A stretch of 62,672 bases of DNA, filler included, from Asterionella formosa (taxonomy: Eukaryota), in the NCBI GenBank assembly GCA_002256025.1. It is 29 parts of 29 records of this genome, joined end to end, with 100 filler letters (N's around TTAATTAATTAA, not from the genome) between each part and the next. Parts side by side here need not be neighbours in the genome. Positions count along the whole stretch, not along the records: positions 56,302 to 58,358 come from NKIB01000526.1; positions 58,459 to 60,515 come from NKIB01000527.1; 27 more parts are not named here. The stretch is one strand, 5' to 3'. The notes beneath the pieces are model-generated. The model saw only the letters and a program-made list of their open reading frames with translations. It was not told the DNA's origin and did not search any database. The position numbers and the translations under genes were made by a program. This document shows, piece by piece, positions 6,517-60,515 of the stretch; within the stretch, counting starts at the first letter, position 1, and each line of letters opens with the position of its first letter.

Positions 6517-7500
6517 ATGAGTGTGGGTAGATGATATTTGTGGTGGAAGTAGCAATTTTACTAGGATTCCTTCCATATTCAGATCGATTCTTTTGTGAAA
6601 GTCCAGTGTAGATTTCTGTACAATAAACGAGTAAATCATCAGTCCATTGATCAGTAAGACCATTTGAAACTGAACTTTCTTCCCTCACACTTTTTTGATA
6701 AGTGGTTTCCCCCCAATGTCGACAAAATCAGTAGAATGACAAATATCGTTCTCTGAAATTTCATGTGTAGTATCTGGATTGAAACCCAAATATTTTTGTT
6801 GCACTCGGAATTTTCCTTTCAGCACCAAGAAGCAAAATGCGTCTGTACTGGCATTGATCAGCGAACCAACAAAACTTGATTGCAATTCACACTGTGCCCG
6901 AAGATCTAGTTGAAATTTGGTCACACCAGATTTGTCTCTTTTTAAAAATGGTTCTCCACAGCTTGTCCTGCCTATAAAATACACTGGAGCAAGAACATCA
7001 CGCCAGAATTGGTATCCATGGCTTCCCCTGTCAATGTCCTCTGACTGCGCAAAACGATAGATCGTGAACGCCCACCTAATAAAGTCATCAATATCCATAG
7101 TCTGGAAGTTATATACTGTTAGACCAGCTGGTGTGTCATGAATTATGTTAGCATTTTCAAGTTGAAACATATTTGATAAGAATATAATCACCGACTCAAA
7201 ACATCATGCTTTCAGAGCATCTCCTGCCCTGCAAGAACTTACCTAAGATTCCTTTAAATTGATTATTCAATATGCACATTCTGACATTCTCTCGACATTT
7301 TAATGCGCATGCCACCATATGTTGATTTGATGTAATCTAAACGTGCCTTGTTGGTACGTCCAATGGTCTGATTAATCGGAAGTAATGCATCAGAACCATT
7401 CCATATGAAATCGGCAAGCTCTGGGTCACTCTCCACTTCTTTGCCTAACTCCGGTTTCACTGTGAATAGCCGAGTTAGGCAACATTGGGCAAACGAATCC
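6517..7500 (-). pseudogene. Fragmented unknown coding sequence
   Basis: Consecutive protein-like minus-strand ORFs (7263..7460, 6685..7191, 6461..6688) in different frames; no family recognised. Confidence 0.3.
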
Positions 7501-7954
7501 TGGCTGTTTGTGATTGGAAATGCCTTTCATACTACTTGGACCAGATAGGGCGGGATGTTTGATTCTCTTTTGGGACCAGAAAAAAGCACATTAGATTTAT
7601 ATTCTGTTTTACAGTACCTGCAATTCGCGAACTATAACCTCAAACTTACATGTTCATAGCAAAACTTCTTGGTCTTGAAAATAAAATTCACAACCTTTGT
7701 TACAATTTATGGATCGGATCAATTTTAGCTAAGTGGGAACGACGTTCTGATAAGGTTGCTGAAATTGAAGATTCTTGATAACCTCGTATGGACAAGCGAG
7801 TTTTGAACCGAATTACGACCTTTGTAGTCTTTGAGTTGCCCAATCGATAATATCCTTTGGCAAGTGCAAACATGTTTTTCCCTCAGTTTGTCATCTACTT
7901 GTTGGTCCGTGCCATTAGAAAATTTATGGTATCATATAATAAATTAACAGATGG

Positions 7955-8586
7955 CATTCTGTTGCTCGCTTACTACTCCGACTACCCTCTTTCAGTTTTA
8001 CAATCATATGATCCTGAACTAGGATGATTTACTGTCCCCCTGCAGTAGCAACAGTCATGAGCATATGGTGTTCTGTTGCTCGCTTACTACACCGACTATT
8101 TTTTTCAATTTTACGATCATGCAATCCTAAAAATATGATGATTTAATGTCCCGCTGCTGTAGCAGCAGTCGTGAACATATGGTGCTCTGTTGCTCGCTTA
8201 CTACTCCGACTATCCTTTTTCAATTTTATGATCATACGGTCCTAAAACTATGATGATTTACTATGGTCCCACTGCAGTAGCAACAGTCATGAACATATGG
8301 TGTTCTGTTGCTCGTTTACTACCTGGTACTGTGACTACCTGGTACCCCCAGTATATCACTTCCTTCCTGCTACTAGTACTCTGTATATATATGATAAAAT
8401 GTTATTGTCGTATGGTGTACTGGTACACATGAAGAACTCCCGCCCAAAAAAGGGGCTTAAACAATTTGCTACCAAAATCCTTGCATATAAATAATGATAC
8501 AAATGGGTTATGACTTAGTACACCAATTGAATGGTCTAAATAATTAGTTCCAACGGAGGTAGAAAATATTGATGCAAACATATTTC
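7955..8586 (+). repeat. Dispersed repeat family R1, copy 1: about 3-4 tandem ~115-bp subunits followed by a unique body
   Basis: TTCTGTTGCTCGCTTACTAC recurs at about 7957, 8070, 8186 and 8302; the body (CCCGCCCAAAAAAGGGGCTTAAACAATTTGCTACC) also occurs at 46320 and, reverse-complemented, near 20600-20640. Confidence 0.9.
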
Positions 8587-19530: not shown

Positions 19531-21150
19531 TCCGGACCTCATTGTCCCTGCCTGTTGTCAACAACAATGCGTGAGCTGACAAGCCATACTAGCATTTAGG
19601 TACACAACAAGAACACACTCACCATTCAACTGTATTGCAGAGTTCTTTCATTTGAGTCGAGGATTCAATTGACATTGCAGCAACCTATGCAGTTACAGAA
19701 ACAATGAGAAGAAATGATTTGTTAGCAAGTAGTCATGTTACATTGAAACAACGACACGCAATTCCATCGTATCCTCTTGCTTCACTTACCACAAATCAAT
19801 GCAACTGATGCATAAGTCTGTAATAGTAACTTGTCAGTAAATTCTTGAATAAGTAAGTTTCGAGTATCCAATGTTGTTGAATAAAACTTACCGGTACATT
19901 TTTGTCATCTTAGCTAACTTTGAGAGAAGGTAAACGTTTTGTCAGCTTTGTTCCAACAGAAGTGAATAGGTCCAACAAGCGACAAGAGCACTTACGCAAT
20001 TTTGTTTTGTTTAACATTGGTGATCCCCAACAAGCGAAACGAGCTGTTTAATCAACTGAGAAAAAAGGAAATGTGGCTGCGTTTAGTTAACAATTTTTTG
20101 TTGTCCTGCCTCCCAACGATTGTCATCCAAGTAGCTACCACATTGATGGCTTCATTATCTTAAACATTCTCCATCCTTCGAATGCGCAATGTGTCGAAGT
20201 CACAATGTTTTTCGTTATGTATTGCGAAAATTTTCTTTTCTTTTAATGTGCTTTACTACGACGTATCTTTTCATGAAGCAGCAGGCATTGTTTGTTAACA
20301 TGACAGAACGATTTCAAAAATATATATGCCATACATATAGAAATAAAATTTGTAAATATATATATATATATATTAAGTGTTATACATTTATAAAATTCAA
20401 ACGCGCTCTCGATATGGAACATCTGATATGGTTTTGATGATCATACTTGCATATACATAATTCGAAAATACTCAATGCACTATATGTCCATTGTTTTCCA
20501 CGACTACATGTACCGGAATTGTTTCTGAAATTTGTTTGCATCGATATTTTCTACGTCCGTTGAAACTAATTATTTAGACCGTTAAATAGCTGCCAGGGTT
20601 TTGGTAGCAAATTGTTTAAGCCCCTTTTTTGGTCGGGAGCTCTTCATGTGTACAGGTACATCATATGACAGTAACGATATATCATATATATACAGAGTAC
20701 TAGTAGCAGGTAGTAAGTGATATACTGGGGGTAGTCGGAGTAGTAAACTAGCAACAGAACACCATATGTTCAGGACTGTTGCTACTGCAGTGGGACAGTA
20801 AATCATCATAGTTTTAGGATCGTATGATCATAAAACAAAAAACAAAAAGAACACCATATGTTCATGACTGTTGCAATTACATTGGGACAGTAAATCATCA
20901 TAGTTTTAGGATTGTATGATCGAATAACTATAATTCAATAGAACACCATATGTACAGGACTGTTGCTACTGCATTCGAACAGTAAATCATCAAAGTTTTA
21001 GGATTGCATGATCGTGAAACTGAAAAGTGGTACCGGTAGTCGGAGTAATAAGCAAGCAATAGAACACCATAGTAAATCATCATAGTTTTAGGATTGTTTA
21101 AATAGAACACCATATGTCTATGACTGCTGCTACTACAGCGGGACAGTACT
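19531..21150 (-). repeat. Repeat family R1, copy 2 (reverse orientation)
   Basis: Colinear reverse complement of about 45880-47393, including the tandem subunits at 20740-21150. Confidence 0.92.
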
Positions 21151-21169
21151 GGTAAATGAATTTAAGATC

Positions 21170-21561
21170 ATCGAACTTTAAGGAAGACAACGACAACAGC
21201 TGGTCGTGTGGCCGTTGCTGGTCCACTTTTAATGGCCGAAGAAGGAAGCGACGAAAAGATCACCATTACGAGCGGAACGAGAGAAATCGCTTACGACGCC
21301 AAGTCTGGACGATTCTTTGAGAATAAAATGCAGGAAGAAGAATGCATTCCTGACGAGGAATACTGTGTCGTCGATCCGGAAAGTGGGGAACTCATTTGTC
21401 TCACAGTAGCCGAAAAGGAGCGTATCTTTCTGGACGCGCTTCAGTCCTACTATGCCACTGGAAGGCAAATGCTCAAGGATGACGAGTTTGACCTATTGAA
21501 GGAAGATTTGCAATGGAACGGATCTGACATGGTTGTCATGAATGTTTCTTCCTGTTTGTGA
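21170..21561 (+). pseudogene. PGRL1: PGR5-like 1 (PGRL1) N-terminal fragment
   Basis: EYCVVD...LTVAEKERIFLDALQSYY...MLKDDEFDLLKEDLQWNGSDMVVMN resembles the PGRL1 conserved region; no signal peptide upstream (R1 abuts it) and homology stops abruptly. Confidence 0.7.
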
Positions 21562-22387
21562 TCAATATCCCATCGATCCATTCGTTCTTGCAAATGTNNN
21601 NNNNNNNNNNNNNNNNNNNNNNNNNNNNNNNNNNNNNNNNNTTAATTAATTAANNNNNNNNNNNNNNNNNNNNNNNNNNNNNNNNNNNNNNNNNNNNAAT
21701 TTCTCTCGCAGCTGTTGAAATTGATTTTCAATGTCATCAAGACTGGATTGAATTCATCTCCGTCCCCATGGGAAGAATTGATACAAAAAATCTTGTCGTT
21801 GAAAGTCGGGAATAAGTTGGGCGTGCTGTCAATCGCTCTTGCCTTTGATGAAATTGATTATTAATCTCATCGAAAACTTGATTGATTTCACCTCCATCGC
21901 TATGGGGACTGATATGAACTTGTCGTTGAAAAGCGGGAATGGGTTAGGCTCAGTCCATAGCATGGGCAAACAAACGATGCATGTTCCTCTGACTGTCTTT
22001 GTTTAGGAGTGAAAAGTCGCTCTTGGAGAGCAATACCTTGTTGAGAAAGTTCTGTTGGCCTGATTCGACGAACAAAGGCTTGCTTCTTGAGAAAAGCTGA
22101 AATTTCTATGTCTCTGTCTCTTTTTTTAAGTTCACTCATGGCATCATCCTTGTCATCAGGAGATGAGGAGAGGTAAGCCGACATGCTGGTCAGTGACTGA
22201 TACTGGTGAAATTAAGGAACTCATGTGGATAATGAACAAGAGGCCGCATAACACGCAAGAGGATGCATCGCTATGAAAATATAACTGTTATAAATTAAAG
22301 TTAAATTTCTATAAAATGTCAGATGACTAATCTAAAATATCTTGATTATCAGAGCGTGACGACGTTATTATGTATCAAATCGCCAAA

Positions 22388-28196: not shown

Positions 28197-30262
28197 GTGC
28201 TCAAATCTTTGCAAATGAAGCGTATTTCGTAAAAGCGTACCCGATGGAGAAGAAGTCTGGCGCGGGTTTGGCGCTCCGACAATTCATTCGTGATTACGGA
28301 GCACCTGAGTACCTCACGTCTGACAGGGTGTCCGAACAGACTGGACCGAAAACGGAATTCATTAAGGAAGTATGGGATTGAACATCACGTGAGCGAAACT
28401 AAACAGCATCGACAGAATCGAGCGGAGTCAGTTATTCGTGAAGTGAAAAAGCGATGGTTTCGACAAATGATGAAGCGTCGGGTTCCGAAGCGTTTGTGGG
28501 ATTACGGAATCGTGTGGGTGTGTGAAACAATGTCTCTCACTGCTAACTCATCATTTGCGCTGGAAGGTCGGACTCCTATAGAACAAATCACAGGCGAGAC
28601 ACCCGACATATCCGAATACTTGGATTTCGTGTTCTACGATTGGGTGTGGTACAAGGATAATGCAGGGGTTGGCGAAAACATGTTCGGGCGCTGGCTTGGG
28701 GTGTCTCACCGAGTCGGTAACCTAATGTCATATTGGATTCTAACCATTGCTTGTCGCGTTATCTCACGCACTACAGTGCAGCGTATCACTCACCTTGAAC
28801 TGACAACTAGCGAGGTCAATGACAGATGCAAGGAATACAATGAGAGGATAAAGGAAATAATACGTGACTACAACCACCAAAATGCAGGCGACGAGGAGGA
28901 GCAACAATTGCAGGATTGGGATGAATACTCGGATCTGCAGGACGACTCAGTAATGGCGAAGAGATAAACAATGTTGTGAGCGATCACCAAATACCAAATG
29001 CCGATGACACTTTCACGCCCGTTTTTTTCGAGGATACATACCTCAACAAAGAGATAGCGATAGCGAGGGGCGCTGGAGATGACAACGACGGTGTTCAGTT
29101 TGGCAGAGTCACCAAGAGATTGCGCGACGCTGATGGTAGACCTATCGGCAAGGCTCACGAAAATCCTTTGCTTGACACCAGAGAGTATGAGGTCGAGTTC
29201 TTTGACGGACACACAGAGGCATTGTCTTCTAACCTTATTGCTCAGAATTTGTTTTCACAGATAGACGAGGAGGGCGAACGACACGTACTTCTCAACGACA
29301 TTATCGATTATAGGCGGAATGCGACGGCACTCGACAAAGAGGACGCGTTCATCACAATGTCTAACGGTGTCAAGCGGCGGAGACAGACGACTCGAGGGTG
29401 GCAACTCCTGTGCCAATGGAGGGACGGGAGTACCACTTGGGTCGCACTTAAGGATGTGAAGCAATCGTACCCCATACAGGTGGTGGAGTACTCAATTGCT
29501 AATCGTATTGATGAAGAGGCAGCGTTCGCGTGGTGGGTGCCGACTCTTCTAAAGAAACGGGACCGAGTCCTAGAAAAGGTAAAGTCTAAGTATTGGCAGC
29601 GAACTCATAAATACGGTATACGGATACCGAAGTCCGTCGAAGAGGCGTTAACGATTGATAAAGCCAATGGCAACACATTATGGTGGGACGCCATCTGCAA
29701 GGAAACGAAAAACGTGCGACCGGCATTTGAAAAGTGGGAAAAGCGAGAGGGAGACCTTCCGCCAGGGTACCAAAAGATAAGGTGTCATTTCGTGTTCGAC
29801 ATCAAAATGGGCGAAAACTTTCGGCGTAAGGCGAGACTAGTTGCTGACGGCAGCCGGACGGAAACGCCCGCAGCCCTGACGTATTCGTCAGTTGTGTCGA
29901 GGGACTCAGTGCGCATTGCCTTATTGGTTGCTTCATTGAACGACTTACAACTTCTTGCTTGCGATATTCAAAACGCTTATCTAACCGCAGATTGCAGATA
30001 GAAAATTTACATAATTGCAGGGCCGGAATTTGGGTCGGAAGCGGGAGCTACCATGGTGGTGAAGAAAGCGCTGTATGGGCTCAAATCTAGCGGTGCGGCA
30101 TTCAGAGCGCATCTCGCAGAAACCCTCCATGATTTGGGTTACTTGCCCACGAAAGGGGACCCTGATGTATGAATTCGACCGGCAGTAAAACCGGATGGGT
30201 TTGAGTATTACGAAATGATTCTTGTATATGTTGATGACATTCTTTGCATTTCAGCGCAGCCT
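28197..30262 (+). mobile_element. CoDi-type Ty1/copia pol fragment (integrase C-terminus, chromodomain-like segment, RT), inactivated
   Basis: QNRAESVIREVKKRW, VPKRLWDY, GRWLGVSHRVG, FDIKMGENFRRKARLVA, TYSSVVSRDSVR, CDIQNAYL, KALYGLKSSG, VYVDD; premature stops at 28965, 29999 and about 30169. Confidence 0.93.
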
Positions 30263-30362: not shown

Positions 30363-32431
30363 AGGCTGCGCTGAAATGCAAAGAATGTCATCAACATATA
30401 CAAGAATCATTTCGTAATACTCAAACCCATCCGGTTTTACTGCCGGTCGAATTCATACATCAGGGTCCCCTTTCGTGGGCTAGTAACCCAAATCATGGAG
30501 GGTTTCTGCAAGATGCGCTCTGAATGCCGCACCGCTAGATTTGAGCCCATACAGCGCTTTCTTTACCACAATGGTGGCTCCCGCTTCCGACCCAAATTCC
30601 GGCCCTGCAATGATGTAAATTTTCTATCTGCAATCTGCGGTTGTTAGATAAGCATTTTGAATATCGCAAGCAAGAAGTTGTAAGTCGTTAAATGAAGCAA
30701 CCAATAAGGCCATGTGCACTGAGTCCCTTGACACAACTGACGAATATGTCAGGGCTCCGGGCGTTTCCGTCTGGCTGCCGTCAGCAACTAGTCTCGTCTT
30801 ACGCCGAAAGTTTTCGCCCATTTTGATGTCGAACACGAAATGACACCTTATCTTTTGGTACCCTGGCGGAAGGTCTCCCTCTCGCTTTTCCCACTTTTCA
30901 AATGCCGGTCGCACGTTTTTCGTTTCCTTGCAGATGGCGTCCCGCCATAATGTGTTGCCATTGGCTTTATCAATCGTTAACGCCTCTTTGACGGACTTCG
31001 GTATCCGTATACCGTATTTATGAGTTCGCTGCCAATACTTAGACTTTACCTTTTCTAGGACTTGGTCCCGTTTCTTTAGAAGAGTCGGCACCCACCACGC
31101 GAACGCTGCCTCATCATCAATACGATTAGCAATTGAGTACTCCACCACCTGTATGGGGTACGATTGCTTCACATCCTTAAGTGCGACCCAAGTGGTACTC
31201 CCGTCCCTCCATTGGCACAGGAGTTGCCACCCTTGAGTCGTCTGTCTCTGCCGCTTGACACCGTTAGACATTGTGATGAACGCGTCCTCTTTGTCGAGTG
31301 CCGTCGCATTCCGCCTATAATCGATAATGTCGTCGAGAAGTACGTGTCGTTCGCCCTCCTCGTCTATCTGTGAAAACAAATTCTGAGCAATAAGGTTAGA
31401 AGACAATGCCTCTGTGTGTCCGTCAAAGAACTCGACCTCATACTCTCTGGTGTCAAGCAAAGGATTTTCGTGAGCCTTGCCGATAGGTCTACCATCAGCG
31501 TCGCGCAATCTCTTGGTGACTCTGCCAAACTGAACACCGTCGTTGTCATCTCCAGCGCCCCTCGCTATCGCTATCTCTTTGTTGAGGTATGTATCCTCGA
31601 AAAAAACGGGCGTGAAAGTGTCATCGGCATTTGGTATTTGGTGATCGCTCACAACATTGTTTATCTCTTCGCCATTACTGAGTCGTCCTGCAGATCCGAG
31701 TATTCATCCCAATCCTGCAATTGTTGCTCCTCCTCGTCGCCTGCATTTTGGTGGTTGTAGTCACGTATTATTTCCTTTATCCTCTCATTGTATTCCTTGC
31801 ATCTGTCATTGACCTCGCTAGTTGTCAGTTCAAGGTGAGTGATACGCTGCACTGTAGTGCGTGAGATAACGCGACAAGCAATGGTTAGAATCCAATATGA
31901 CATTAGGTTACCGACTCGGTGAGACACCCCAAGCCAGCGCCCGAACATGTTTTCGCCAACCCCTGCATTATCCTTGTACCACACCCAATCGTAGAACCCG
32001 AAATCCAAGTATTCGGATATGTCGGGTGTCTCGCCTGTGATTTGTTCTATAGGAGTCCGACCTTCCAGCGCAAATGATGAGTTAGCAGTGAGAGACATTG
32101 TTTCACACACCCACACGATTCCGTAATCCCACAAACGCTTCGGAACCCGACGCTTCATCATTTGTCGAAACCATCGCTTTTTCACTTCACGAATAACTGA
32201 CTCCGCTCGATTCTGTCGATGCTGTTTAGTTTCGCTCACGTGATGTTCAATCCCATACTTCCTTAATGAATTCCGTTTTCGGTCCAGTCTGTTCGGACAC
32301 CCTGTCAGACGTGAGGTACTCAGGTGCTCCGTAATCACGAATGAATTGTCGGAGCGCCAAACCCGCGCCAGACTTCTTCTCCATCGGGTACGCTTTTACG
32401 AAATACGCTTCATTTGCAAAGATTTGAGCAC
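30363..32431 (-). mobile_element. Second near-identical copy of the CoDi pol fragment (reverse complement of 28197-30262)
   Basis: Same ORFs, same inactivating stops and same end points; differs by a 3-bp insertion and scattered SNPs. Confidence 0.93.
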
Positions 32432-45409: not shown

Positions 45410-45876
45410 NNNNNNNNNNNNNNNNNNNNNNNNNNNNNNNNNNNNNNNNNNNNTTAATTAATTAANNNNNNNNNNNNNNNNNNNNNNNNNNNNNNNNNNN
45501 NNNNNNNNNTCCCATTCATGATCCTTGGGACTTCGTCATGTTGTGGCGTTCTACCCCCTGCTCCATAACCACAGCCACCCTGTCGCGGGCCGTTGCAACG
45601 CACGATAATGGGTGATGTACCAAATTTTTCCGGTATTCCGGTAATAGAGGGGGGGCGGGGGGCAGCGCTTTGACCTTCACAGCCTCTCTACAGAGCTGCT
45701 ACAGAAAATAATAGGGAAAAACATAGTACCACCATAACCGTAGGTGCTACTTAAAGGTGCTGATAAAAGATATAGACGTACTACCTGGTACCGGTAGTAA
45801 CTCGTCAGCCTGGCTAATTATCGCGCCAGTTAAATTCATAAAAGCAATATTATGATAACTACCGGGTAGGTATGCC

Positions 45877-47569
45877 AGAACATATGGTGTTCTGTTGCTC
45901 GCTTATTACTCCGACTATTGGTTTTTAGTTTTACGATCATACAATCCTAGAGCTATGATGATTTACTGTCCCACGGTAGTAGCAACAGTCCTGAATATAT
46001 GGTGTTCTATTGGTTTTTAGTTTTACGATCATACGATCCTAAAATTATGATGATTTACTGTCCCGCTGCAATAGCAGCAGTCATAGACATTTCGTGTTCT
46101 ATTGGTTTTTAGTTTTACGATCATACAATCCTAAAACTATGATGATTTACTGTCCCACTGCAGTAGCAACAGTCCTGAACATATGGTGTTCTGTTGCTAG
46201 TTTACCGGCACTACTCCGACTACCCCCAGTATATCACTTACTACCTGCTACTGGTACCCTGTATATATATATGATACGTTGCTATTGTCATATGATGTAC
46301 CGGTACACATGAAGAGCTCCCGCCCAAAAAAGGGGCTTAAACAATTTGCTACCAAAACCCTTGCGGCATTTGAACGGTCTAAATAATTAGTTTCAACGGA
46401 CGTAAAAAATATCGATGCAAACAAATTTCAGAGATAATACCGGTACACGTACCGGTAGTCGTGGAAAACAATGGACATATAGTGCATTGAGTATTTTCGA
46501 ATTATGTATATGTGAGTATGATCATCTCAACCATATCAGATGTTCCATATCGAGAGCGCCTTTGAATTTTATAAAATGTATAACGCTATATATATATATA
46601 TATATATTTACAAATTTTATTACTATATTCATGGCCAATATATTTTTCAAATCGTTCTGTCATGTTAACAAACAATGCCTGCTGCTTCATGATAAGATAC
46701 GTCGTAGTAAAGCACATGACAAGAAAAGAAAATTTTTGCAATACATGACGAAAAACATTGTGACTTCGACACATTGCGCCTTCGAAGGATGGAGAATGTT
46801 TAAGGTAATATAATGAAGCCATCAATGTGGTAGCTACTTGGATGATAATCCTTGGGAGACAGGCAGCACAACAACAAATTGTTAACTAAATGCAGCCACA
46901 TTTCCTTTTTTCTCAGTTGATTCAACAGCTCGTTTCGCTTGTTGGGGAGCACCAATGTAAAACAAAACCAAATTGCGTAAGTGCTCTTGTCACTCCACTC
47001 GTTGGACCTATTCACTTCTGTTGGTATAAAGCTGACAAAACGTTTACCTTCTCTCAAAGTTAAGATGACAAAAATGAACCGGTAAGTTTTATTCGACAAC
47101 ATTGGATACCCGAAACTTACTTATTCAAGAATTTGGCTTACTGACAAGTTACTATAACAGACTTATGCATCAGTTGCATTGATTTGTGGTAAGTGAAGCA
47201 AGAGGATACGATGGAATTGCGTGTCGTTGTTTCAATGTAACATGACTACTAGCTAACAAATCATTCCTTCTCATTGTTTCTGTAACTGCATAGGACCATA
47301 AAACCAAACAACGGAATAGTCGGCGAAAAATGCTAGTATGGCTTGTCAGCTCACGCATTGTTGTTGACAACAGGCAGGGACAATGAGGTCCGGAATGGAA
47401 GTTGTTCTGGTAAGATTACTGCGCTATTTTGACGGCTATATGAGCAACGCTACTGATAACTCACACTGATCTTCCTCTACATTCAATTGACATTGCAGCA
47501 AACCCTTTCAGTGCAGGAGCATTCGCATGCCGTTCCGAATGAGCAGGCTTTATTTCATTAATGAAACTC
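45877..47569 (+). repeat. Repeat family R1, copy 3 (tandem subunits + ~1.3-kb body containing splice-like signals)
   Basis: Matches 7955-8586 and the reverse complement of 19531-21150; the stretch beyond about 47393 has no counterpart in this window. Confidence 0.88.
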
Positions 47570-55850: not shown

Positions 55851-56321
55851 CTTACATTGATGAAAGCATGACATTTTACCAAGGTCATATGAAACAAGGC
55901 AGTTTTCCTTGGCACGAAAAATTGTTATTGCAAGTGATATTTGATACATTACATACAGAAAACAAACAAAAGAAGATGAGTAAAGAAGTACATATGAATG
56001 TAACTGAGGGTATTTCAACAGAAATTGATTTCAAAGGAATGATTCCGGATACAAGGATGTTGCCTGGTGCGTCGCCTGATAATTTGGGAATATTGCCTAC
56101 CAAGATCCATTCACCATCCCTTCCTGTTAAAGTTCAGTTCTCTGCTTCATCATCAAATGGTCTATAACAGAAAAATCAAGTGTTCAATCTCTATTTGACA
56201 GNNNNNNNNNNNNNNNNNNNNNNNNNNNNNNNNNNNNNNNNNNNNTTAATTAATTAANNNNNNNNNNNNNNNNNNNNNNNNNNNNNNNNNNNNNNNNNNN
56301 NCCACCATCAGTTAGAAAACA

Positions 56322-58358
56322 ATGAAGGTTTGGTTCCAGTTGTTTCTTGGAAACGCAGGACTATTGCCAGTTTATGTCACGTTGACGGAGAATGATGTCA
56401 TTGCTGACTTGATGGAAGCTGTGAAGATTAAATGTGAAAATAGTCTGAGTGCCATAGATTCAGCGCAGCTCCGTGTGTACCCACCTGGAACTCAAGTGCC
56501 GGTTCCTGAGGGAGCTGATGATCCAACCATGGATCCTGGAGGTCTGGTTGTTCATCTGAATTGGGGAACTAGCAGCAAGCATGCGTTCGTGATCGTGGTC
56601 ATCCAACCTGATATTGGTACGTGTTTTGATCTCATGGAATACCCTCTATTGTATTGTAGGTCACAGCTCCTAATACTTACGTATCATTTCGTATCATTTA
56701 TCCCCTACAAATACTCGCTACTGTTGAAAAGACCAAGGAACGACGAAACGCCAGAAACCAAATGATGAGCAGGATGAAGCCTCGTCCTTAATATTGCTTA
56801 TAAAGGAGAAGCTCAACGTTCATTTCAAGCGCTTGGAGGCGGATCAGCAAGACCGAAGAATTCCAAAGACAATGCATATCTACATGATTGATCCGAAAAA
56901 AATTCCTTCTATTCCTACTTTACCTCCTTCTGACCCTACCTTACCTCTTTCTGATCCTACTTTACCCGCTTTTTCCCCAACTGATAGTTACTGGATTGAA
57001 AATGTCCAACAGGTGCGGTTCGACGACAGTGTTAGTAGGGGAATCTTATATCGCCCTAAAATTGTGAATGAAATGATGAAAGTTGTTGAAGATGCCTTCA
57101 AGAAAGAGCGTCGGACTGGAATCATGATCAAAGGACCGCATGGAATTGGCAAGTCGCACTCACTTGTCAACTTGGTTCGTAACCTGCAATATAACAGCAG
57201 CTGCAAGTACCTCGTAACTTTCATTCCAGACTGTCAAGAATGGAATGATGTTAACGAGTTGTACACTGCAATCTGTAGATCATTTGGTACTTCCTTACCG
57301 GCTCTCAAGTGGAAGATCTGTTCAAAAGATATCGAAAATTCAAGAGATCTGCAAACTTTTGTCAATGCCATTGACTTGATTCTTCAAGATATGAACAAGA
57401 AATGGGTCCTAGTCTTCGATCAGATCAACAGATTGTTTGCTCGACCAGAGCTAAACAAATCTGTTGATCTGGGCACTCTTCCCTTTTCTTTTCGTCTCAT
57501 CAACAGCATAATGAAGGGAGACCGCATTGTCTCCATCATTTCAGCTTCCGCAAACAACGAGATAGCCTACAGGGAAAGTCATCGAGGGTTTGTGGAGTAT
57601 GATCACCCTTGCCAAATGAATTTGGCAGAAATAGAGCTTGCTTTTAATGAAGTGGCTATACGGAATAACGGCAAAGAAATATTAAAGGTGACTGGTGGGG
57701 TGCCCTTACAGGTGAGGAATCTGATTTCCTTCAACTTTTCAATTGCCAATTATGAAAAGGGTGAATTGTGCTCAATTCTATTTTCTCTTGGAAAATTGCA
57801 TGACACGAAAACGGAATTGGAGTATAAGGGTATCACAGCATCAGCAGTTGGTTGCATTTTGTCAAATACAGGCCATGCCATGTATTATGACAGAAAGTAT
57901 TCAATTCCTGGCAAGAGGGAGGAGTTCACTCACTACGAGCCATTGTATCCTTTGGTGTTGGTAGCAGATCAAACCTTCTTTTGGGAGGACATACTGGAAT
58001 ATGTCGAAACACACGAGGCATCACTTTTGTTAGTCTGTGCCAATCTTAGTACAACAAATGACACTCGTGGTCGGATTTTTGAATTTCTTGTGATCAAGCA
58101 CTGTTCAACCAATGCAAATGTTACTTTTTTGAAAGGATTTTCGGCATTGAAGAAATGCAATCTCATTGAAACTTTTCCCCCAAAGAGTACCTTTCCCTCC
58201 AATGTGTTGCCAGAAATCATGAACGAAAATGGAATGTATGTTCCCCGAAACTCCAATTTTCCTGCAATTGATCTCATCTGGAAGTGTGGCGATAGTGTGT
58301 GTGGTGTCCAGGTACATGTTTCCAAACATCACAATGTACTGAAAAAGTTTACAGAAAT
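56322..58358 (+). CDS. Crinkler/CR-type effector, copy A: ubiquitin-like header + P-loop NTPase + REase-fold nuclease; join(56322..56616,56732..>58358)
   Basis: Header VWFQL..VIADLMEAVKIK..LSAIDSAQLRVY; a 115-nt GTACGT..AAAG intron joins the two ORFs in frame; Walker A GPHGIGKS, Walker B WVLVFDQIN; REase motifs RGRIFEFLV, NFPAIDLI, GVQVHVSKH. Confidence 0.8.
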
Positions 58359-58478
58359 NNNNNNNNNNNNNNNNNNNNNNNNNNNNNNNNNNNNNNNNNN
58401 NNTTAATTAATTAANNNNNNNNNNNNNNNNNNNNNNNNNNNNNNNNNNNNNNNNNNNNCCACCATCAGTTAGAAAACA

Positions 58479-60515
58479 ATGAAGGTTTGGTTCCAGTTGT
58501 TTCTTGGAAACGCAGGACTATTGCCAGTTTATGTCACGTTGAAGAAGAATGATGTCATCGCTGACTTGATGGAAGCTGTGAAGATTAAATGTGGTGACGA
58601 TCTTCAAGGTGTTTCCTCAGCGCGGCTCCGTGTGAACCCACCTGGAACTCAAGTGCCGGTTCCTGAGGGAGCTGATGATCTAATCCTGAGATCTGGAGGT
58701 CCGGTTGTTCATCTGAATTGGGGGACTAGCGACGACACTGCGTTTGTGATCGTGGTCATCAAACCTGATATTGGTACGTGTTTTGATCTCATGGAATACC
58801 CTCTATTGTATTGTAGGTCACAGCTCCTAATACTTACGTATCATTTCGTATCATTTATCCCCTACAAATACTCGCTACTGTTGAAAAGACCAAGGAACGA
58901 CGAAACGCCAGAAACCAAATGATGAGCAGGATGAAGCCTCGTCCTTAATATTGCTTATAAAGGAGAAGCTCAACGTTCATTTCAAGCGCTTGGAGGCGGA
59001 TCAGCAAGACCGAAGAATTCCAAAGACAATGCATATCTACATGATTGATCCGAAAAAAATTCCTTCTATTCCTACTTTACCTCCTTCTGACCCTACCTTA
59101 CCTCTTTCTGATCCTACTTTACCCGCTTTTTCCCCAACTGATAGTTACTGGATTGAAAATGTCCAACAGGTGCGGTTCGACGACAGTGTTAGTAGGGGAA
59201 TCTTATATCGCCCTAAAATTGTGAATGAAATGATGAAAGTTGTTGAAGATGCCTTCAAGAAAGAGCGTCGGACTGGAATCATGATCAAAGGACCGCATGG
59301 AATTGGCAAGTCGCACTCACTTGTCAACTTGGTTCGTAACCTGCAATATAACAGCAGCTGCAAGTACCTCGTAACTTTCATTCCAGACTGTCAAGAATGG
59401 AATGATGTTAACGAGTTGTACACTGCAATCTGTAGATCATTTGGTACTTCCTTACCGGCTCTCAAGTGGAAGATCTGTTCAAATGATATCGAAAATTCAA
59501 GAGATCTGCAAACTTTTGTCAATGCCATTGACTTGATTCTTCAAGATATGAACAAGAAATGGGTCCTAGTCTTCGATCAGATCAACAGATTGTTTGCTCG
59601 ACCAGAGCTAAACAAATCTGTTGATCTGGGCACTCTTCCCTTTTCTTTTCGTCTCATCAACAGCATAATGAAGGGAGACCGCATTGTCTCCATCATTTCA
59701 GCTTCCGCAAACAACGAGATAGCCTACAGGGAAAGTCATCGAGGGTTTGTGGAGTATGATCACCCTTGCCAAATGAATTTGGCAGAAATAGAGCTTGCTT
59801 TTAATGAAGTGGCTATACGGAATAACGGCAAAGAAATATTAAAGGTGACTGGTGGGGTGCCCTTACAGGTGAGGAATCTGATTTCCTTCAACTTTTCAAT
59901 TGCCAATTATGAAAAGGGTGAATTGTGCTCAATTCTATTTTCTCTTGGAAAATTGCATGACACGAAAACGGAATTGGAGTATAAGGGTATCACAGCATCA
60001 GCAGTTGGTTGCATTTTGTCAAATACAGGCCATGCCATGTATTATGACAGAAAGTATTCAATTCCTGGCAAGAGGGAGGAGTTCACTCACTACGAGCCAT
60101 TGTATCCTTTGGTGTTGGTAGCAGATCAAACCTTCTTTTGGGAGGACATACTGGAATATGTCGAAACACACGAGGCATCACTTTTGTTAGTCTGTGCCAA
60201 TCTTAGTACAACAAATGACACTCGTGGTCGGATTTTTGAATTTCTTGTGATCAAGCACTGTTCAACCAATGCAAATGTTACTTTTTTGAAAGGATTTTCG
60301 GCATTGAAGAAATGCAATCTCATTGAAACTTTTCCCCCAAAGAGTACCTTTCCCTCCAATGTGTTGCCAGAAATCATGAACGAAAATGGAATGTATGTTC
60401 CCCGAAACTCCAATTTTCCTGCAATTGATCTCATCTGGAAGTGTGGCGATAGTGTGTGTGGTGTCCAGGTACATGTTTCCAAACATCACAATGTACTGAA
60501 AAAGTTTACAGAAAT
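58479..60515 (+). CDS. Crinkler/CR-type effector, copy B; join(58479..58773,58889..>60515)
   Basis: Same architecture and intron as copy A; differs mainly in exon 1. Confidence 0.8.

Follow-up and report, generated by a model that had tools for sequence, protein, structure and literature searches.

Block-wise mosaic headers on near-identical Crinkler-like genes in an Asterionella formosa assembly

In the stretch of DNA analysed here (the window; 62,672 bases of the Asterionella formosa assembly GCA_002256025.1), two contigs, contig 27 (hereafter A) and contig 28 (B), each carry one Crinkler-like gene comprising a header exon, a short intron and a second exon encoding a P-loop NTPase chassis. 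The two copies are almost identical outside a 219-base patch of the header exon, which holds 39 of their 40 differences. Based on a synonymous divergence confined to the header exon, a mosaic of block forms among related headers and the tandem repetition of header units at other loci, we consider it probable that the patch was imported piecewise from other headers of the family, and that A and B belong to a large, expressed and tandemly clustered family of the Crinkler/RHS type.

Divergence between copies A and B

The window joins 29 unplaced contigs of 2053-2074 bases in roughly descending order of size, and is not one stretch of the genome. Its joints are N44-TTAATTAATTAA-N44 linkers (56 runs of 44 N and 28 copies of TTAATTAATTAA), and any neighbourhood or tandem order across a linker is artificial. 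Copy A lies next to copy B in the window because both are exactly 2057 bases long, and the two are not genomic neighbours; no further contig among the 29 resembles either. The first and last bases of A and B are the same, and both open frames run past the contig end, with approximately 66 codons missing at the 3' end as judged from a relative, L004. The two contigs would be assembled representatives of alleles or of very recent paralogs. Feature coordinates are collected in Table 1.

Table 1. Features of contigs A and B, in window coordinates
Feature	Position	Strand	Remarks
Linker before contig A (N44-TTAATTAATTAA-N44)	56202..56301	.	contig boundary, not genomic sequence
Contig A (contig 27), 2057 bases	56302..58358	+	one Crinkler-like gene, cut at 3' by contig end
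Leader, first-unit type	56302..56321	+	in-frame TAG before ATG; identical in A and B
Exon 1 of A, ubiquitin-like Crinkler-type header	56322..56616	+	98 codons + 1 base, ends FVIVVIQPDI
Variable patch in A, 219 bases	56386..56604	+	carries 39/40 A/B differences
Phase-1 intron of A, 115 bases, GTACGT...AAAAG	56617..56731	+	spliced out in RNA
Exon 2 of A	56732..58358	+	linker, proline-rich repeat, P-loop NTPase, C-terminal region (restriction endonuclease, REase, per literature; putative); open to contig end
Walker A, GPHGIGKS	57133..57156	+	G, P, G, K, S invariant in 19 relatives, down to 30% identity
Sole chassis difference	57327 (contig position 1026)	+	A in copy A (Lys), T in copy B (Asn)
Walker B-like strand, WVLVFDQ	57403..57423	+	W, F, D invariant in 19 relatives
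C-terminal motifs FPAID ... GVQVH, putative nuclease core	58258..58329	+	D nearly invariant, H invariant
Linker between contigs A and B	58359..58458	.	artificial
Contig B (contig 28), 2057 bases	58459..60515	+	ends as in A
Exon 1 of B	58479-58773	+	
Variable patch in B	58543..58761	+	
Intron of B	58774-58888	+	
Exon 2 of B	58889-60515	+	

In an ungapped comparison over 2057 bases, 39 of the 40 differences between A and B fall at contig positions 85-303 and the remaining one at position 1026; in 200,000 random placements, 39 of 40 differences never fell inside a span of 219 bases. Exon 1 differs at 21 of 98 residues, and 25 of its codons differ, four of them synonymously only. The leader (20/20 bases) and intron (115/115) are identical, and the chassis shows a single difference in 541 codons. 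These counts confirm what a preliminary description, made from the sequence alone, had noted by eye: exon-1 differences grouped in blocks, an identical leader and intron, and one Lys/Asn exchange in the chassis. Within the patch, identical runs reach 45 bases (the longest) and 34 bases, and 17 of 23 bases differ in the block encoding residues 39-46.

By the Nei-Gojobori method, exon 1 shows 9.0 synonymous differences over 69.5 sites and 30.0 non-synonymous differences, corresponding to synonymous (dS) and non-synonymous (dN) divergences of 0.142 and 0.147 and a dN/dS of 1.04. The flanks show no synonymous difference in 348 chassis sites and none in 115 intron sites (exon 1 versus chassis plus intron, 9/70 vs 0/463; Fisher p = 7e-9). 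Since the synonymous sites of exon 1 have diverged where those of the flanks have not, and selection on residues cannot raise synonymous divergence, the ancestry of the patch differs from that of its flanks. The patch would thus not have been built by point mutation in place under selection. A diversity-generating retroelement was also considered and rejected: of the 39 patch differences, 15 have adenine in copy A, 11 have it in copy B and 13 in neither, and no reverse transcriptase was found on the contigs.

Mosaic headers and the origin of the patch

A search with header A returned 45 proteins at 60-93% identity, mostly exon 1 read into the intron by prokaryote-style gene callers. Across 47 aligned headers, the positions at which A and B differ are the variable positions of the family as a whole (entropy 1.16 vs 0.40, p = 7e-9). 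Each variable position takes two or three states only, and "hypervariable", the term earlier applied to the header, overstates this variation. Block 39-46 occurs as ENSLSAID, GDDLQGVS or GDNLQGVS, with 14 sequences each, and other blocks occur as KK (22), NQ (11) or TE (8) and as DDT (21), SKN (13) or SKH (5); the three blocks appear in 24 combinations among 41 complete sequences. A comparable contrast between patch and chassis is seen in two database proteins of the spliced type, P0302 and P0222, in which the 19 differences or gaps are all confined to residues 26-96, with 171 identical residues after them.

Recombination tests at the DNA level used 11 of 20 header units from A, B and 13 metagenome loci, with eight partial units and one duplicate excluded. 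The four-gamete test was failed by 836 of 1653 informative site pairs, the minimum number of recombination events was 11, and the pairwise homoplasy index was 0.276, compared with 0.506 in permutations (0/5000 as low). Of the explanations put forward in the preliminary description, patchwork conversion or swapping of exon pieces is therefore the best reading, given the synonymous excess, the block combinations and these tests. Other header cassettes would have supplied the patch through gene conversion or unequal crossing-over, the potential donors being the first exons of many gene copies, together with the two or three in-frame tandem header exons of some genes. Every cassette is bounded by the same intron and linker, and the conserved flanks and the stretches between blocks might serve as homology anchors. 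Divergent blocks, each existing in two or three old forms, would be passed on as units, resulting in mosaic headers on near-identical genes.

A number of points weigh against this explanation. All sequences compared are short-read assemblies, and for a family with thousands of variants, assembly may place distinct headers on a single consensus chassis or join blocks that were never together; the phasing of A and B with their own chassis, and some of the block combinations, may be wrong. Copies A and B have the same ends and size, as expected of two paths through one region of an assembly graph, the identical runs within the patch (45 and 34 bases) exceed a 31-base word, and no run contig among those listed spans the whole A/B stretch from header to chassis. 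An exact copy of header A or B was not found elsewhere, the best matches reaching 91/98 and 94/98 residues. Furthermore, the near-equal frequencies of the block forms are unlike plain homogenising conversion, and selection could be keeping them.

Several of these points would also be explained if the header variants were real, and their attachment to the chassis, perhaps along with the block combinations, were a product of short-read graph assembly. Further observations of this kind are that contigs 14 and 15, the other near-identical pair in the window, likewise have common ends; that 6223 variant contigs of DNA run X1 align to the 2057 bases, with none of those listed spanning them; and that position 57327 in this run is T at nearly all depth, with the base of copy A accounting for 35 of 101296 depth units. 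Conversely, collapse of uniformly diverged paralogs cannot give 1754 identical bases, because paralogs uniformly 13% diverged have no long words in common. The contrast between patch and chassis also repeats in independent assemblies (L004 against A and B, and P0302 against P0222), several header forms recur as clusters of 8-13 member sequences, and the junction between tandem header units (described below) has its own sequence at several loci, in RNA and DNA alike. We regard an artefact of this kind as unlikely, though far from negligible.

Contigs 14 (28197-30262) and 15 (30363-32431) form a reverse-complement pair, 98.7% identical with ends in common, in which 26 differences are scattered over positions 434-1951, whereas those of A and B are clustered. 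They are probably two haplotypes of one locus, which suggests that the assembly keeps both alleles.

Piecewise import was also weighed against selection for diversity, under which the header would constitute a specificity surface, its block forms would be under balancing or positive selection, and recombination would only shuffle them. The block forms do appear old (as in the 17 of 23 bases differing in block 39-46), their frequencies are near-equal (14/14/14; 22/11/8; 21/13/5), third-position diversity in exon 1 is not above that of first-plus-second positions (0.127 vs 0.115), dN/dS reaches 1.4-1.55 in some pairs, and 15 of the 21 residues differing between A and B map to neither predicted strands nor predicted helices. 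This bias towards loops falls short of significance, however (15/55 vs 6/43, p = 0.14), and dN/dS, although unreliable in either direction between recombining mosaics, is 1.04 for A and B and spans 0.43-1.55 across 65 pairs drawn from 12 header units. The header is not set apart by these values, because those of the chassis are 0.71 between A and L010 and 0.82 between A and L004. Nor does the header have a known partner or target. Diversifying selection on the header, as initially proposed, consequently appears improbable, and nothing here speaks for the immune-receptor-like sensor that had been suggested along with it.

Gene plan, expression and related loci

The header was modelled with AlphaFold2 on a 44-sequence alignment, and this model (pLDDT 84.8, pTM 0.77) replaced one based on a shallow alignment (pLDDT 50.8). 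In a Foldseek comparison with the PDB, all 19 matches at E ≤ 0.001 were to ubiquitin, SUMO, NEDD8, ISG15 or other ubiquitin-like domains, with a best target-normalised TM of 0.77. The model thus predicts a ubiquitin-like fold, in agreement with the preliminary description. In Pfam, the link of the header to the Crinkler N-terminal domain (PF20147) is transitive only, since header A scores below the cut-off (14.4 vs 24.6 bits) and some distant relatives score above it; header B gave no match. At E ≤ 1, PF20147 was found in 31 of 47 close relatives (best 1.3e-4). A profile of ten headers yielded 82 representatives, and among the 33 of these distant proteins that were scanned, 16 matched PF20147 at E ≤ 0.01 and six scored above the cut-off, the best being P0227 with 47.6 bits. 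P0231, a protein of bacterial origin with PKD repeats, also matched the header profile and was taken as spurious.

In the available text of PMC5289972, Crinklers are described as having an LxLFLAK-like motif early in the header and an HVLVxxP-like motif closing it. Residues 4-11 (WFQLFLGN) and 89-96 (FVIVVIQP; FVIVAP in relatives) of the present header resemble these in character and position, with no exact match. In copies with internal tandem headers, the hydrophobic N-terminus cannot be a signal peptide, because headers sit internally in the array.

In the proposed gene plan, a header exon of the ubiquitin-like type is followed, directly behind its HVLVxxP-like end, by a conserved phase-1 intron of 115 bases and then by a P-loop NTPase chassis with a conserved C-terminal module. 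The donor (G/GTACGT, after 56616) and acceptor (AAAAG/, before 56732) join the frames in phase 1. Contigs of RNA runs X3 (poly-A) and X2 (metatranscriptome) lack precisely this 115-base segment, bounded by GT..AG, a skip absent from DNA runs X1 and X20, and RNA depth in X3 is 50.7 in the intron bin versus thousands on either side. The spliced junction, PDI/DQG, is also present in the database proteins P0222 and P0302. Runs containing the A/B stretch derive from freshwater, lake, estuary and "algae" samples.

Over eight complete units, exon 1 had a nucleotide diversity of 0.118, compared with 0.032 for the intron and 0.089 for the opening 60 bases of exon 2; at a finer scale, values were 0.04-0.05 in the conserved stretches between blocks and 0.017-0.037 in the centre of the intron. 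The intron is thus the most conserved part of the repeat unit across the family, and its greater conservation relative to the exon, first noticed between A and B, holds family-wide. Folding z-scores of 0.46 and 0.31 on the two strands indicate no excess RNA structure in the intron, and Rfam gave no match at E ≤ 1 on contig A and none at gathering score over the whole window. The conserved intron may represent a homogenised recombination anchor.

A few further features of the intron and its surroundings were observed. The exon-1 frame is open through the whole intron (56617-56765; 58774-58922 in B), with a stop only at 56765; a retained intron would yield a 147-residue header-only protein with a hydrophobic tail, and RNA depth in the intron is approximately 1-4% of that in its flanks. 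In L004 (787-905), a relative with 96.7% identity, the intron is without its AG and has two additional bases. Unspliced, this locus forms one open frame of 743 residues (492-2720), and a nearby AG would also keep the frame; the change could be an intron exonisation or a homopolymer error. Downstream of the intron, a proline-rich PTLPPSDPTLPLSDPTLP stretch (window 56904-56983) shows joints that go back 42, 54 or 63 bases or skip 85 in DNA and RNA contigs, and this short coding repeat, PTLPPSDPTLPLSDPTLP, differs in copy number among family members. Upstream of first-type headers lies a repeated element of approximately 60 bases (…ACAATCGTACGCCAC…GAATGCTGGCTCGCAAGAC…) followed by a CT-rich microsatellite (L001:150-330, L003:150-260, L004:170-230 and L005:1760-1960), and contigs A and B start just past this region. 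Read depth was considered as a measure of copy number and left unused: the intron bin of X1 sums to 925979, 3-12 times the chassis bins, X20 disagrees, and such sums are not copy numbers.

With respect to the chassis, the preliminary description had proposed an NTPase coupled to a nuclease. The first part stands: the chassis matches Pfam AAA_22 at 27.9 bits (cut-off 27) and retains the Walker residues. The second finds no counterpart in our searches, as the C-terminal part matched no Pfam family, and a profile search against PDB sequences matched the P-loop region only (best E 0.0032). Its FPAID...[Q/E/K]xH pattern also differs from the classical D...(D/E)xK. A language-model search with the C-terminal 206 residues gave neighbours in Oomycota and Euglenozoa clusters, one of them with Pfam RHSP in 14% of its members, which we treat as a lead only. 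Two diatoms, at 34-36% identity, are the sole relatives of the chassis that carry a name; together with the sample types above, they make a freshwater, diatom-like alga the probable source. Header, NTPase and REase make up the commonest Crinkler/RHS-type arrangement, which the accessible text of a review (PMC5289972) credits to Zhang et al. 2016, and by its sequence features the A/B gene fits this arrangement, with the nuclease putative.

Comparison of A with its relatives reveals that header and chassis are uncoupled. Relative to A, L004 is 98.4-99.8% identical in the chassis and 87% in exon 1, and L010 is 81-92% identical in the chassis and 92.6% in exon 1. Header B is closest, at 94.6%, to an internal tandem unit of L002, for which the chassis is not comparable, and L008 has a chassis only about 70% identical yet an intron at 88%. 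Overall, the relatives range over 70-99% identity in the chassis and 82-93% in the header; family-wide, it is the chassis that shows the greater variation. It also has a mosaic structure of its own (identity between A and L010 is 80.8% over the first third and 91.7% thereafter), and approximately 500 variable places are found over the 2057 bases across four sequencing runs. The invariance previously ascribed to the chassis does not hold, and was an unsafe inference from two short-read contigs of a very large family.

At L002, L003 and L007, a unit equal to A positions 1-491 is repeated head to tail. With introns removed, L002 comprises three headers in one 311-residue open frame, L003 two headers, and L007 the order header-header-chassis. 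Each unit has its own acceptor and a linker stub leading in frame into the next header, and RNA contigs contain this stub-to-next-header junction. The junction has its own sequence, coding ...SLMVPTTIMSTT, at several loci; it shows up as a joint going back 480 bases in both RNA run X3 and DNA run X20, and also forms an N-terminal extension in several database proteins. Among more distant relatives, P0227 has two tandem headers, P0263 three followed by a P-loop, and P0225 eight. Copies A and B are themselves single-header genes, with an in-frame stop in the leader and an exon 2 that runs into the chassis. An arrangement of variable first exons on a shared constant acceptor, of the protocadherin or UGT1A type, was rejected, each unit having its own acceptor, though some skipping of header exons may occur.

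A header of the same family, 64-66% identical, also heads a HECT-domain ubiquitin-ligase-like protein, P0306 (Pfam HECT, 296 bits). Headers of this type lie approximately 500 bases downstream of a Crinkler-like chassis at L006:1123-1500, L008:2560-3040 and L011:1904-2138, and those of L006 and L008 show the same ENSLSAID/GDDLQGVS block swap as A and B.

Whole genes and 5'-truncated copies stand head to tail at L004, L006, L008, L011 and L012. Chassis copies truncated at the 5' end, with neither header nor intron, were observed a few hundred bases downstream of other copies, complete or partial (L004:3010-3558; L012:1108-1884). L009 (2981-4140) and L010 (1-460) have a 1-base deletion of the header exon in common, and L009 in addition lacks the chassis part matching A positions 551-1270; both are likely pseudogene copies. 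Such damage, along with a dN/dS of 0.7-1.0 over the whole gene and the very large size of the family, is what a decaying repeat family would show, in which most copies would be non-functional, selfish or transposon-derived and nearly neutral, and mosaicism a by-product of ectopic recombination. In prokaryotes, moreover, the NTPase-REase module is tied to transposons, according to the part of the review of Zhang et al. 2016 (PMC5289972) that was available. Decay is nonetheless very unlikely in our judgement: long open frames are kept in A, B and L004, relatives as low as 30% identity preserve the Walker A/B residues and C-terminal motifs unchanged, poly-A RNA contains the gene in spliced form, and no transposases or terminal repeats were found on the contigs, two upstream frames of L005 matching no transposase family.

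A more far-reaching extension of the favoured explanation, piecewise import, would be that the tandem intron-bounded headers act as a working cassette archive, feeding the header of the chassis by conversion or crossing-over, possibly with skipping of symmetric phase-1 exons. Combinatorial ubiquitin-like surfaces would then be presented on one NTPase-(nuclease) engine in a free-living alga, a eukaryotic counterpart of polymorphic-toxin or antigenic-variation cassettes directed at competitors, parasites or invading DNA, with the intron as a built-in recombination joint that explains the modularity of Crinklers. We consider this scenario a long shot.

Other contigs of the window encode ordinary eukaryotic genes, namely an OBG GTPase, IGPS, an RsmB/F methyltransferase and a TAZ/armadillo protein. 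Contigs 4 (6517-8586), 10 (19531-21597) and 22 (45510-47569) have a repeat family in common, at 72-90% identity and with internally repeated segments.

Comparison with known systems

The Plasmodium MSP1 block dimorphism, var genes, and pilin and VSG cassettes are systems in which a few old, divergent block forms are reshuffled by segmental conversion. The present headers likewise show few old, divergent block forms between conserved stretches; unlike those systems, they give no evidence of an expression site, silent archive, switching or immune pressure. Polyubiquitin and tandem ubiquitin-like genes consist of head-to-tail, in-frame beta-grasp repeats that can evolve in concert, and the repeats described here are also head to tail, in frame and of a predicted ubiquitin-like fold. 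They differ in that every repeat occupies a separate exon, accompanied by a conserved intron and a linker of 30 residues, and in being diverged and mosaic; in addition, they have no evident C-terminal Gly-Gly processing site, and the array ends in an NTPase chassis. Similar to the trypanosomatid RHS proteins, the other half of the 'CR' class of Zhang et al. 2016, the genes form a large recombining multigene family with an NTPase-containing C-terminal module, although no Pfam RHSP match was found here and both header type and organism differ.

Crinkler-type proteins are known chiefly as effectors in pathogens of plants and animals. Within the Crinkler literature searched (supplements outside the search), we found no description of a junction intron, in-frame tandem header exons, a few old block forms common to genes, or occurrence in a probably free-living alga; no paper with a title or opening lines of an abstract describing a diatom's or alga's own Crinkler genes turned up, one diatom paper naming only those of an oomycete parasite. 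Recombination of Crinkler modules has so far been inferred from sequence patterns alone. If confirmed on single molecules, the junction intron and the repeated exon-intron header units would represent a physical substrate for the shuffling of modules and sub-modules, and would provide a tractable, apparently non-pathogenic organism for studying the role of the ubiquitin-like header.

The closest parallels are with the oomycete CRN effectors of Phytophthora sojae and P. infestans. In the available text of Shen et al. 2013 (PMC3726527), 32% of P. sojae Crinklers have similar N-termini on unrelated C-termini, and in 35% the C-termini are nearly identical and the N-termini differ; exchanges of fragments 40-303 bp in size, tandem duplicates and a dN/dS of approximately 1 are also reported. 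The A/B pattern is thus known Crinkler behaviour and not, as first thought, the reverse of the textbook arrangement. As in the CRN proteins, to the extent that these are covered in the accessible text of PMC3726527 and PMC5289972, a ubiquitin-like header ends in a hydrophobic strand and a proline and is followed by a P-loop NTPase-type C-terminus. Family expansion, head-to-tail copies and recombination at the junction of header and C-terminus are likewise in common, and the accessible text of PMC5289972 presents HVLVxxP as a presumed recombination hot spot. In contrast to the CRN effectors, the genes described here come from a freshwater microbe, not a known pathogen, with diatoms as its nearest named chassis relatives; header A scores below the Pfam Crinkler cut-off, a conserved intron lies exactly at the junction, and headers can be repeated in tandem, in frame. 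The HECT gene under the same header family, on the other hand, matches the classical CRN pattern, in which one header is found on different C-termini.

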